The notes under the pieces are model-generated. The model was not told where the DNA came from, searched no databases, and worked only from the letters and a program-made list of their open reading frames with translations. DNA of 64,000 nt. It comes from Antedon mediterranea (lineage: Eukaryota; Animalia; Echinodermata). This document shows positions 52,449 to 57,984 of this stretch, one piece after another. The number at the start of each line of letters is the position of its first letter. The first letter of the stretch is position 1. The stretch spans positions 17,050,001-17,114,000 of the forward strand of contig NC_092674.1 of assembly GCF_964355755.1 (NCBI RefSeq), given 5' to 3'. Both the position numbers and the translations under genes were made by a program.

Positions 52449-53384
52449 TTATGAACTGAACCATGAAATACGAATGTATTTCTTGAAAACAGAAGATTTC
52501 CATCTCCCAAATTGTAGAATGAGGCTATCTGACATGCCAAATGACGCAGCATGTGTTGCTGCCCCAATACGAAAACTGTGGCCCTTGTAATGGCTCGGAT
52601 TCAACCCAATAAACGACACTGTCGCTCTCAGCCGGCACGCCACAAATTGTTGTGTAACCGCCTTGTCATCAAGGTGCTGAAACAAGGGACCTGTGGACTG
52701 TTGGCAATGTGCGAGGTAGTTTGTTAGTGCGGCCACTGGGCAGTACTTTTCTCTAACCCATGGTGCAAATGATACCGAAACGGGGGATTTTCCAACTCCA
52801 GTTTTGTGGTGTCGTATTATGATTAAGGCCCCTGTTTCGTTCAGAGTTAAATCGTTGCGCTGTACTACGTTTGAATCTTTGGCTTTTGATGCCAATTCTC
52901 CGAGCCGAAAAAAACCCCTGAAACGCTGTAAGAAATAATGCTTCAAGTAACAAACGATGGGGTAGTAATGGTTCTATAAACTGCAATGCATCGAGTAGCC
53001 TAATCAAGATCCCTTTTGTTATGGGAAGCCGAGAGTCCACTTTTGCCGCCCTAGAATGAATTCCGTGGATAATTTTTTGAACGAGGAAAAACCCGCTAGG
53101 ATCCGGTAGGCCTACTAACTTGTGTACGAACGAGATTGCAGACATATGTGAGGAAATTGTTCCTGGTGCCAGACCTTTGTCAAATAAATGAGACAGGAAA
53201 TTACAAATTGTACCTACATCAAGTGGTAAGGGTACTCGTTTTCCTGACCAGGATGCCAACAGTTGCAGACTACGTCTGTAAGCCTTTCTGGTGGCTGGTG
53301 CAAGGGAGGATTCGATTAAGGAGACCGCTGTCGGTGTCAGAGCGGGATTGGCTGCTCCTTGCTGTGGGTCTATAATGGAGAAGC
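52449..53384 (-). pseudogene. Tyrosine recombinase (one frameshift near 52930; no own start codon)
   Basis: SSLAPATRKAY, GLAPGTISSHMSAISFVHKL, RLPIT, GFFRLGEL, HKT, CPV, GHSFRIGAAT, GRWKS..FKKYIR. Confidence 0.9.
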
Positions 53385-53429
53385 CTGTAAAATAAACTAT
53401 ACAAATTAATCTTGTTTAACGTAAGTAAG

Positions 53430-55152
53430 TTATTGAAGCAGCTCATGCTGTACTTCTGTAGGATGAGCGTTAAGAGACTTATCCAATGACAATGCTTTGT
53501 TGATTTGGATCCTGGACAGTAGGTCAGCCAACACATTTTTCTTTCCTGGAATGTGTTTTGCTTTGAACAGAATGTTGTGATTTAGGCAACAAAGCACCAA
53601 GCGTCGCAAAAGGCGCAGGAGAGTAGCGTCTTTCGCGGTTTTTTTGTTAAGTATTTCGCAAACTGCTTGGTTGTCGGACCTAAATAGGATCCTCTTATTC
53701 GTGAGCCTGGGTGCCCACGTTTCCAACGCAATCACAATTGGAAACAATTCAAGTACAGCTATGGACCTGCCTAAAAATGAACACGGCCAAGGAAACGCAA
53801 ACCAATCACTTGAACCCGCCGCGTCGGTAAATAATCGGATCGTATCCGAGGTGATCCATTTTACCGGAAGAATGAGGGCTTTGCCATTGAAATGTTTAAT
53901 AAAGGTAAGCCACATGTACAGATCCTGTTCTGCTTCTAAATTAATCCTAATGAAATGGTTTGGGTGTTTTGCAAGGGAGAGGAGGTTGATGAGTCTTCGC
54001 AGAAAGGTTCGACCCGGTAGGACAACTGAACAAGCAAGAAACCTATTAACGACTGTAGTTCCCTTAAAGTAACTTTTTTCCTTGTTACAAATGTATCTAG
54101 AATTGATTTTATTTTCGTTACTTTTGCCTCCGGCAAGCGACATATCATGTTGATTGAATCAACTTCAATGCCGTAAATGATGATATTCGTCGTAGGAGCG
54201 ACTGTCTTAGAATCTTTTATAGGTACTCCAATTCTGCGACAAAGGAATATGAAACTGGCTAATGCTTCGCGACAGGTTTTCGAATGCGCCGGGCCTACGA
54301 ACCAGAAATCGTCTAAAATGTGCGAAGACTCATGAACCTGAAATTTGTTCCCCATGATCCATATTATTGCCCGACTAAATCACTCAAATATTTGGCAGGA
54401 TCTGCTAGCCCCCATTGGTAGACACTTGTCAAAGTAAAGTAGACCCTCCCAACTGAAACCTAACAGATGATAGTCGTCCGGATGGATCGGGACAATGCGA
54501 AAAGCATCTTCGATATCGGCCTTGGCCATAAGGCATCCTATTCCATTGCGGAGAACAAGCATTATTACCGAATATATTGTATCGTATGACACGGCAGAGG
54601 CTTCGGAAGGGATACCGGAGTTTACAGAGACACCCCGCGGGTATGACAGGTATTGTATAATACGGAATTTTCCCGCTTCCGCCTTTGGAATGACGCCCAA
54701 CGGTGATGCGACAAAATCCGAGAAAGGTGGGGAGACAAATGGGCCTGCTAGCCTTTTGCGTTGGATCCCAATCTTAATAAAATTTGTGATTTGCTCCGGA
54801 TGGTTAATGGCGCTAGGATGGTTGCGTGCGATTCCCGGCGGAGGGGGGAAGTGGTGCAACAAAGTCTGAACCCGACTGAGAATCCCCAAATTAAATTTGT
54901 AAAGAGGGGTGGTGAATAACCGGTTAAGTACGAAGCCAGTACTTTAACTTTTACTGGTGTTGGTAATGTTGCCTTGCTTGGCTGTTTGATTTCTGGCCGT
55001 GGTATGTCCGAATCCAGAGGGGCGCTGTTTCCTGCAGCGGATCTTGGGATGAGGGAGGTCGCACAAGGTACAGTTGTGTTTGAAAGTACAGGGCTGTGCT
55101 GTGCAGGTTTTTCCTGTATGGAAGACAAAGCAGTAGCCCTTGGGAACCCCAC
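53430..55152 (-). pseudogene. Reverse transcriptase / RNase H of the YR retrotransposon (several lesions), overlapping the gag 3' end
   Basis: TPVKV, GF..GFRL, AGPF, SPLGVIPK, KFRII..LS.P, AKADIEDAFR, CLPMG, HILDDF, PGRTFLRRL, FTDAA, LELFPI, SDNQAV, HIPGKKNVLADLLSR. Confidence 0.9.
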
Positions 55153-55864
55153 GAAAGGGCTGATTGAATCCCGTTCTCACCCCTGAAGTGGTCATCGGGA
55201 CCGATTGATATGTTACTAGCTTTAGCATCAGTTCGGTGTGCAGTACCTCCCACTTCAAGGAGCGTCCTTGACGGGCTCTTCTGAATTGTTCATCGTATGC
55301 TCGCCATGCATTGTTCTGTGCGGTAATTGACAAATCCAAAATGTTGTTCGCATATTTTAAAATGTTAAAACATTCTTTTGGGAATTTTTCCAAGAAAATG
55401 GCTGCATAGATGTGGAACACCTGTTGCCATTCTAAAACCGTGAGCGGTTTCCGTTTTTGGTCGCTCTCGACTCGCACTTGATTTCCTGCTATAGTTACCG
55501 ACATATGCGGGTCGCGTTGGTTGGGGAGCAGAGACCTTATTTCGATATATTGATCGTTCCAAATTTTAGTTTTGGTGGGAAGCGGAATGTCCTACCCCAA
55601 AGCAATAGTGTCCATCATTGTCAATTGACACCCAGTTGACGGCTCACCTTGGAGAAGGTCGCTGATTAAAGGGGTAAACGCTTCTTCCATCGCCGATGGT
55701 TCATCTCCTTCTGGTGAATTAGTAGCAGGAGGCGCGTCGGTCGGTTTCTTCATCTGTTTTGCTACGGCCTCTGCCAAATTTTCATAGTCGATATTAGCTG
55801 TTAGTTGTTCCATTGTGGTTGGTTTTGGTGCCGCTGACCGGCGGGTTGACTTTGATTTCGGCAT
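54944..55864 (-). pseudogene. gag-like ORF with one in-frame TAG at 55594-55592
   Basis: ORFs 55592-55894 and 54944-55504 are in frame via KIWNDQYIEIRSLL. WRAYDEQFR and a C-terminal Cys/His cluster (CFVFH...C....C.FKHNC..C...H....C) are present. Confidence 0.8.
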
Positions 55865-56099
55865 TTTACCTAGATAATAGTAATTAAAGAACAAAATATA
55901 TATATATATATATATATATTCAGGTTGAAATTTTCAGACCGTTTGGATAGAGTGCTCAATACCAAGGTAGAGCATAAATAAATAAAATAACAGCAGAAAA
56001 CTTGGTTTTTTCAAATTTGTTTCGTACGAAACAAATTTGTAGTGATTAAAACAATGAAGTAACCAAGTTTTCTGCTGTTATTTTATTTATATATATATA

Positions 56100-56368: not shown

Positions 56369-56496
56369 TATATATATATATATATATATATATATATATA
56401 TATATATATATATATATATATATATATATATATATATATATATATATATATATATATATATATATATATATATATATATATATATATATATATATA
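56369..56496. repeat. (TA)n microsatellite, about 128 bp
   Basis: Pure TA run. Confidence 0.95.
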
Positions 56497-57093
56497 AAGT
56501 AGTTGCGGGTTTATATCCCGTGGTAACATGTATGATTCACCCATCGATTTGCAAGTAACCTGGCGGCACAGCATAGCTGGTAATTACCCAGGTAAACATC
56601 CAAACGTGGGTGAGCCAACCAACCAAATAGAAATATAATTAACATGGTATAAAAAGCTATATAAACATAGTATGGTCGGCCCCACCACTTGGCCTGGAGG
56701 CACAGCATAAAACTGCTGGAAGTTACCCAGGACCGATAGTTGGTGGCTACGTTATTAAAAATAAAAATACATTCGGCGGAGAGTAAAAAACTGCCAATTG
56801 ATATGGCATAGTATAACACCAACCGAAGATAAAATGGCTGACCATAAGATAAAAAGCCTGGAGGCACAGCTAAAATAGCTGGAAATTACCCAGGAAAACC
56901 ATGTAATAAGTTGGTGGTTAGGTACCGTAGTTATAGGTAGTAGACTACTAAGTAATAGTAGAAAATGATAATGATATAGTATAAAATAATATATCTATAT
57001 ATATATATATATATATAATATATAATAGTAGTAGCAGTATTATTGCATATTCTTATAGAAAATATTTTTTATATTTACTGATGATAGAAACAT

Positions 57094-57634
57094 TTATTTA
57101 AATACTGGCCTTTTAAGAATTTGTTCTGCGTGCATCATCGCTCCTCTTACACTCCTCATATACTTGTACATGTCTGATGGACCGAGATGGACACCGTCTA
57201 CATGTAGATGAGACAAATCGCCCATAATCCTCTGTGCTTCCATAGTATAACATTATGCCTATTAGCAAACCGCCTTTCTAAAGTCCGTTCGAGTTCGGCG
57301 ATCGTTTAAGGAGTTGACAAATCATCACGAGTTTACAACCTGTTCCGCATAGCAGGAAGTCAACTAAAGTGCATAAGCGTGCGACTATGTAGCGATTATC
57401 TCGGTCAGCTAGGTCGTTTTCTCCAAGTTGTATAATTACAACATCAGGCGACACAGGCCAAGCATATAATAAAGATGTGTATTGATGAAGTTTAAGACCC
57501 CCTCTACATCTGTAGCCAATAACAAAGTTGTGTTTCGACAGTCTCATATTAGCCGCATTGTTGAACGGCGTGTTGGCATAGTCACGCCGCCTCCGAATAA
57601 AGGAGTGCCCAAAAAGGCATACCGTAATTGGCAT
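57094..57634 (-). pseudogene. SGNH/GDSL-like hydrolase ORF of the YR retrotransposon (C-terminus disrupted)
   Basis: Block I FGHSF, block II RGG and block III QLGENDL. Block V DGVH at 57198-57187 lies beyond the annotated ORF, ending RSVRGA...PVFK* at 57094. Confidence 0.7.
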
Positions 57635-57984
57635 GATACCTTTATAAATTGAAACAGTTACTTACAGAAACGAGGGAGAATGCGTAAAATACAGTTGAAT
57701 TCTGAAGAAATCACGAATAGTTAGGAAGTGATACGAAAAATTACTCTCCAAATATATAATGACCACGATGAAATGGAATTTGAAAATTGAGTTTTGACGC
57801 AGGACGTAGGTTTAGTCTTAATTAAAACAAAGGAGAGGATTAAACCACATGCGCCGCCGCTTATAAAGCCCCTCCAGCGATATGTTATACATGACTTGGC
57901 AAATGAAACACCCTCTATCAGGAATTACAATTATACCTGTCTGCTAAGTGACACAAAACAATTTTCCTATATGCTTCGAAAAAT

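Follow-up and report, generated by a model that had tools for sequence, protein, structure and literature searches.

A start-less recombinase frame in a Ngaro-like retrotransposon of Antedon mediterranea is probably expressed from a spliced Gag-recombinase mRNA

How can a retrotransposon produce its recombinase if the reading frame of this enzyme offers no start codon? This question is raised by a stretch of 64,000 nucleotides (nt) from the crinoid Antedon mediterranea (NCBI RefSeq assembly GCF_964355755.1, contig NC_092674.1, positions 17,050,001 to 17,114,000 of the forward strand; hereafter called the window). Its minus strand carries a damaged Ngaro-like tyrosine-recombinase retrotransposon (order DIRS) with the gene order hydrolase, gag, reverse transcriptase/RNase H (RT/RH, the pol gene) and tyrosine recombinase (YR); all element features described below lie on this strand and are given in window positions. 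No answer to the question of how downstream start-less open reading frames (ORFs) of such retrotransposons are translated was found in the searched parts of the literature (including PMC7192593, PMC6681497, PMC9341512, PMC8547959, PMC4157794, PMC3783388, PMC3266345, PMC5009743, PMC3498833, and bioRxiv 2021.08.05.455354). The explanation which, taken as a whole, fits best is that the YR is probably made from a spliced mRNA, in which a phase-1 splice would fuse the first 72 codons of gag to the recombinase and skip the rest of gag together with RT/RH.

A first-pass annotation of the sequence had named a set of promoter and splice motifs, all of which are present: a TATA-like TTTATAAG (57867-57860), a leader donor GTAAGT (57660..57665), an acceptor AG/G at 55870/55869 (55869..55891) that lies 5 nt before the gag ATG, a gag donor CAAG/GTGAG at 55648/55647 (55642..55651), and an acceptor TTTACAG/G at 53385/53384 (53384..53404) in the pol-YR spacer. 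The YR frame is indeed start-less, as it opens at 53415 directly after the stop 53418-53416 and contains no Met before its conserved SSLAPATRKAY. The exon beginning at the acceptor (52449..53384; ORF and Pfam evidence) encodes a SAM-like N-domain and the catalytic residues HSFRIGAAT...GRW...YIR. The gag gene (54944..55864, ATG at 55864) encodes a basic start, an IDYxxLA helix, a conserved core, to which the first ORF of related elements corresponds, and a Cys/His knuckle. Its donor follows 217 coding nt, i.e., 72 codons plus one nucleotide, and the YR acceptor has an offset of 1, so that both sites are in phase 1 as claimed and the predicted intron measures 2263 nt. Scored with approximate splice matrices, the donor reaches 6.5 bits and the acceptor 4.3 bits, and with its phase conserved in relatives (see below) the pair stands above chance.

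Support for the join itself, with removal of the remaining gag and of RT/RH, comes from three sides: the RefSeq model of a sister copy, the conserved splice signals of relatives, and two short contigs. The closest protein matches are near-identical proteins annotated in A. mediterranea. One of these, XP_071947269.1 (P0175; 382 amino acids, aa), stems from another copy of the element and is identical to the Gag N-terminus of the window at 67 of 72 positions, after which it continues with G-FSIDPQQG into the YR. It leaves Gag at the codon of the window donor, enters the YR at the window acceptor and runs through the whole recombinase. The model is one residue shorter than the predicted product, which matches a 3-nt gap at 53372 present in all four of the public sequencing runs compared with the window.

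Further fusions were found when the 150 best homologues of the N-terminal half of the YR were examined for their type of N-terminus. About 17 of them start with a Gag-type N-terminus, a simple rule having called 19, of which three (a bacterial repeat protein and two proteins with short leaders) were dropped, while two were added by eye. The Gag-YR homologues come from Saccostrea, Ostrea, Argopecten, Pecten, Gigantopelta, Littorina, and Branchiostoma; one Gag-like homologue joins deeper in Gag. The N-terminus of the Gag protein P0158 recurs in two Branchiostoma isoforms (P0002 and P0004), whose exits from Gag lie 6 aa apart. RefSeq isoforms generally need transcript support. Fusions of 428 aa (P0165) and 289 aa (P0030) are encoded on a 1659-nt Logan contig and a 1090-nt JGI contig, respectively, both of which are too short to hide an intron of about 2 kb. 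For P0030, as well as for P0185 and P0187, the Gag N-terminus and the YR form a single ORF in JGI and ENA contigs, one of them 35 kb long; possibly, such an ORF is a DNA copy of a spliced RNA. Comparison of 12 fusion or YR proteins with the fetched loci yielded no mapping above 60% identity and no junction at the nucleotide level, and a search of viral contigs returned only one unrelated bacterial-type integrase locus.

The first-pass annotation had also asked for conservation of the splice sites and their phases across related families. Relatives were taken from unannotated DNA, namely the best 80 of at least 577 related stretches from a metagenome scan (81 with the window). Exclusion of 6 unanchored stretches and 5 with weak or edge anchors left 70 YR frames, one of which was too short, resulting in 69 loci in 49 families (60% identity) that are not phylogenetically independent. 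The 70 frames open 45-85 codons before a conserved Tyr, and 43 of them, counted by eye, lack any Met before it. The best acceptor 45-200 nt upstream is in phase 1 at 60 of the 69 loci and in 41 of the 49 families, compared to 93 of 196 control windows inside the YR (p = 2e-7). For gag, 35 loci could be anchored, giving 20 families with at least 60 open codons, in which no more than 300 nt ahead of the conserved core were scanned. Here the best donor, often G/GTGAG, is in phase 1 in 17/20 families vs. 21/40 controls (p = 0.003). An acceptor scan ahead of RT, which served as negative control, showed no bias (phase 1 in 8/23 families). Hence the phases of the gag donor and of the YR acceptor are both conserved.

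Most of the YR acceptors fall on the ADxLSRxQ motif of RNase H, which makes protein conservation a confounder. The same coincidence is at the center of a rival explanation, according to which a frameshift out of the RT/RH frame yields a Pol-YR polyprotein and the AG is a mere by-product of the motif. What speaks for it, and against the splice, is that the relation between the RH and YR frames is identical in all 43 families compared, as a fixed frameshift would likewise produce. Further points in favor of the polyprotein are that the YR frame of relatives opens inside the 3′ end of RH and that, in the consulted part of PMC3783388, the YR is described as either frameshifted relative to RT-RH or in the same frame. 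Codon usage, however, separates the splice signal from the confounder: in the 43 families with the motif, its Gln is encoded 36 times by CAG and four times by CAA (no Gln in three), compared to 219 CAG and 288 CAA codons (43% CAG) elsewhere in the same ORFs (p = 3e-9). In three of the four CAA cases a CAG follows at a distance of one or two codons. The remaining case is the window; its family does without the usual motif acceptor and has one that lies outside pol, about 120 nt downstream, and is still in phase 1. A Pol-YR frameshift leaves the preference for CAG over CAA, the phase-1 gag donor and the joined records unexplained, and in the window family it would have no overlap to shift in, since pol stops at 53430 and the YR opens at 53415; the intervening stop is also present in the main contig of one of the sequencing runs (X1). 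We therefore regard the polyprotein as very improbable. It is very probable that intact copies use the gag-internal phase-1 donor and the acceptor before the YR, and that the Gag-YR splice would be general in this group of elements.

Several observations weigh against such a splice. XP_071947269.1 is a gene model and can be a prediction, and the model of yet another copy (P0009) begins at an internal Met. Among the 150 homologues, the N-terminus is short in 105, nine carry RT/RH-derived sequence in place of Gag, and eight could not be anchored, which implies that predictors do make other joins. The contigs encoding P0165 and P0030 may represent RNA or DNA, and P0030 could be a deletion. Finally, 27 of the 70 YR frames of the relatives do contain at least one Met before the conserved Tyr, eight of them 23 codons upstream (L013, L047, L048, L053, L055, L072, L075, and L080). 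The Met at codon -23 may be the true start of these eight, or it may simply reflect the RNase H frame that overlaps there.

Several of these points could be accommodated by a start at an internal ATG, either on an RNA of its own or on one that is leaky-scanned, in which case the splice motifs and the fused models would be artefacts of the predictors. The models P0164 and P0170 begin at internal Mets as well. In the window family, however, the first Met of the YR lies inside the SAM-like domain, which a start there would cut. In addition, 43 of the 70 frames offer no such Met at all, and the biases in phase and codon choice were measured on unannotated DNA. An internal start is consequently considered very improbable, and expression of the YR by splicing from gag is preferred.

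Four of the seven listed public sequencing runs (X1 and X6 among them) were compared with the window. Hydrolase, gag, pol, and YR are present at similar depth in all four, at a divergence of about 2-3% from the window, and the runs depart from the window at most of the listed break positions, including 55593 within the gag stop. This suggests a young, multi-copy family, with damage that looks private to the window copy. The first-pass annotation was silent on this damage, although it affects all four genes of the window copy, the only one of the element in the window: the hydrolase contains a stop at 57280-57278 and a change of frame further on, gag an in-frame stop at 55594-55592, pol frame breaks near 54848 and 54034 and a stop at 54382-54380, and the YR a frameshift near 52908. 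Full-length products are thus not possible from this copy, which restricts the expression scheme to intact sister copies. The YR acceptor and the stop 53418-53416 are unchanged in the main X1 contig, whose nine differences are located elsewhere and which has about 145 extra nt upstream of this stop; other copies are also longer than the window near 57295, in the hydrolase. No Gag-YR junction is among the joints listed in the four runs, a further point against the splice. Yet X1, which had been guessed to be RNA, resembles the other three runs in that spacers and repeats are covered too. All four are DNA-like, and the missing junctions are therefore uninformative with regard to expression.

A joint 57838>57411, seen in three runs, was considered as a splice and rejected, as it is not GT-AG and occurs in DNA-like runs; it is read as a deletion variant. 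Contigs of these three runs join across 57411-57838 at a depth near that of the full form, and the deletion form is likely a non-autonomous variant keeping the terminal repeat and the 3′ part of the hydrolase.

With the splice skipping RT/RH, it has to be asked how the latter is read, a point left unanswered in the first-pass annotation. The pol frame (53430..55176), identified from its ORFs, weak matches to RVT_1 and RT_RNaseH and its relatives, has no ATG at its start and is in +1 relative to gag in 19/21 families. In the gag frame of the gag/pol overlap, TTT-CGN occurs in 15 of 18 families, compared to 0 and 2 in the other two frames. Phe-Arg pairs are written as TTT-CGN in 24 of 43 cases in gag vs. 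12 of 45 in pol (p = 0.005). In the window, the start of the overlap carries CCC TTT CGT in the gag frame (55148..55159) as candidate site. Slightly more likely than not, RT/RH is reached by way of a +1 ribosomal frameshift at TTT-CGN, to which these counts point. Two other routes were rejected. A -1 slippery heptamer is found in the overlap of only 3/21 families and is absent from the window, where pol is +1, and splicing of the gag donor to RT finds no phase bias in the above-mentioned scan, with the best acceptor of the window at this place being in phase 0.

The hydrolase gene (57097..57634, 3′ end approximate, own ATG at 57634) lies ahead of gag. The window fragment matches Lipase_GDSL_2 with an E-value of 0.066, and in the relatives L022 and L014 the match clears the Pfam cut-off; its depth in the runs resembles that of the element body. 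In nine loci besides the window, the hydrolase is located 5′ of gag, in two beyond the 3′ repeats and in 18 directly after the YR. In a 33-row tree of RH and YR, containing unnamed loci only and no named Ngaro reference element, a branch (94/99) sets the 14 rows with 3′ hydrolase apart from the side that holds the window, which indicates that a hydrolase placed 5′ is the mark of a lineage of its own. An origin of this arrangement from circular permutation or from a neighboring copy was ruled out by its recurrence in nine loci and the element-like depth. Two loci (L009:4827-6281 and L030:4781-5916) contain identical direct repeats of 566 and 434 bp after the YR with unique DNA between them, and the hydrolase of L030 comes after the second repeat, an order that a tandem or circular form of a 5′-hydrolase element would show.

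The first-pass annotation had derived three mRNAs from one promoter, with a leader donor at exactly 57666/57665 spliced to 55870/55869. This full scheme differs from the explanation preferred here only in the leader donor, and one half of it stood up better than the other. An acceptor of at least 3 bits within 40 nt of the gag ATG was found in 7/16 families, but only in 8% of 152 background windows (p = 3e-4; 16 of the 35 loci had no clear ATG), and the window acceptor, with 2.6 bits, is the best of its 14 background windows. Such acceptors are also present in loci in which no 5′ hydrolase was seen. Moreover, a recurring 5′ hydrolase with its own ATG would block scanning to gag. The donor fared worse: although the intron side at 57665 is a perfect GTAAGT, its exon side TCT is poor, and with 0.9 bits it is at chance level, being reached by 56% of shuffles (p = 0.56). 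Among the nine 5′-hydrolase loci, only two have a donor with a shuffle p < 0.05. The best donors of relatives lie 15-223 nt before the hydrolase ATG, at no fixed distance and mostly not above shuffles, so that the donor 57665 has no fixed counterpart upstream of other 5′ hydrolases. The main contigs of X1 and X6 contain the same GTAAGT, as would be expected anyway at about 2% divergence. A second promoter is possible in the 1.2-kb spacer before gag. On balance, we lean toward a 5′ leader intron which ends just before the gag ATG and removes the hydrolase gene from the gag and YR mRNAs. The use of donor 57665 by this intron is doubtful, and the three-mRNA scheme in its exact form is accordingly rather unlikely.

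In the proposed mechanism, the 5′ leader intron would take the hydrolase gene out of both mRNAs, Gag would be translated from an RNA retaining the Gag-YR intron, and RT/RH would follow from the same reading by the +1 frameshift at TTT-CGN. The basic, helix-bearing N-terminus common to Gag and the fused recombinase might then bring the latter into the Gag particle or the nucleus.

ORFs, Pfam and relatives place gag, RT/RH, and YR on one strand with the YR last, and the Pfam matches of the window, all weak, are to a GDSL/SGNH hydrolase, RT (RVT_1), RNase H (RT_RNaseH) and both tyrosine recombinase domains. No methyltransferase domain was matched by Pfam after RNase H. The pol end at 53430 lies about 25 residues past the end motif of RNase H and 45 nt before the YR acceptor, and the ~145 extra nt of other copies are too short for such a domain. 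Gene order and missing methyltransferase thus fit Ngaro-like elements. DIRS-like elements are distinguished by inverted terminal repeats, an internal complementary region and a methyltransferase; no inverted repeats of this kind lie at the ends of the element, and the methyltransferase is missing. The combination of split direct repeats with a methyltransferase, which defines PAT-like elements in the consulted parts of PMC4157794 and PMC7192593, is rejected by the missing methyltransferase. An SGNH ORF directly after the YR, as in the amphibian type, is likewise not found, given that the hydrolase lies 5′ of gag and X1 contigs continue past the YR with non-coding DNA down to 52050.

At the 5′ end, the TATA-like motif is enclosed by a terminal repeat (57784..57989), which probably represents repeat A of a split-direct-repeat arrangement. 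Contigs over this repeat end at 57989, have about twice the depth of hydrolase contigs (X1, 52-67 vs. 29; X6, 357 vs. 180) and show a second continuation at 57784 in all four runs, likely the pattern of a terminal repeat present twice per element. For split direct repeats of the form A1...B1 A2 B2, the window contains a single repeat copy, the 3′ repeats being missing from the window copy. The place expected for them is occupied by a ~880-bp element (51156-52035) resembling miniature inverted-repeat transposable elements, with 127-bp terminal inverted repeats (91% alike). The retrotransposon as a whole is inserted into an 87-bp satellite array: an 87/78-bp satellite with higher-order periods covers 46000-51150 and 57976-64000, and its orientation flips near 59200. 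The spacer between hydrolase and gag contains a very high-copy repeat (55938-56340, summed depth 1e4-1e6), a 120-bp imperfect hairpin (55974-56094) beside a long AT microsatellite, and a 35-43-bp repeat present three times (56559-56899); clusters of short repeats also occur in the spacers of several relatives.

Neither a spliced YR nor a 5′ hydrolase or a +1 site was found reported for Ngaro-like elements in the searched parts of the literature, a scope that leaves out the 2004 work of Goodwin and Poulter, the 2015 work of Poulter and Butler, and Repbase; the searched part of a review (PMC5009743) does not name "DIRS" or "Ngaro". If true, a conserved Gag-YR splice would give a nucleotide-exact and cheaply testable answer for elements of echinoderms, molluscs, and amphioxus. 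It would also predict the real N-terminus of the recombinase, of use for the biochemistry of this enzyme, suggest a delivery route for the integrating enzyme in an element without protease, and imply that many invertebrate gene models named "xerD homolog" are transposon transcripts. Two further testable additions to what the first-pass annotation had contained are the lineage with a 5′ hydrolase and the candidate site of a +1 frameshift.

Retroviral env and foamy-virus pol are produced from spliced subgenomic mRNAs. For plant Ty1/Copia elements, the consulted parts of PMC5580714 and PMC3735527 describe a spliced subgenomic gag mRNA. The element would resemble such long terminal repeat (LTR) retroelements in that alternative splicing of one transcription unit sets which proteins are made. 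The candidate frameshift site has known counterparts in UCC_UUU_CGU of influenza PA-X (PMC3498833, in part) and UUU_CGN of amalgaviruses (PMC5052127, in part), with which it has in common that TTT-CGN occupies the zero frame where a +1 overlap begins; unlike these, it would act in the gag/pol overlap of a retrotransposon. Xenopus DIRS-53_XT and DIRS-54_XT, Ngaro-like elements with an SGNH hydrolase after the YR (bioRxiv 10.1101/2021.08.05.455354), share with the window element the order gag, RT/RH, YR, the missing methyltransferase, the extra SGNH hydrolase and, in relatives, the direct-repeat ends; splicing is not mentioned in the searched part of that paper. In the window, however, the hydrolase precedes gag and has its own ATG, whereas theirs follows the YR. 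As a tentative generalization, animal Ngaro-like elements might run a retrovirus-like program comprising a Gag-YR splice, a Gag-Pol made by a PA-X-type +1 frameshift, in one lineage a hydrolase within a 5′ leader intron, a mobile but phase-keeping acceptor usually placed in RNase H codons, and a Gag tag that loads the recombinase into the particles of protease-less elements. YR elements are described as lacking a protease in the consulted part of PMC3783388. Unlike in LTR elements, where the integrase is cut from Gag-Pol by the protease, splicing would here fuse the Gag N-terminus directly to the integrating enzyme and skip RT/RH.

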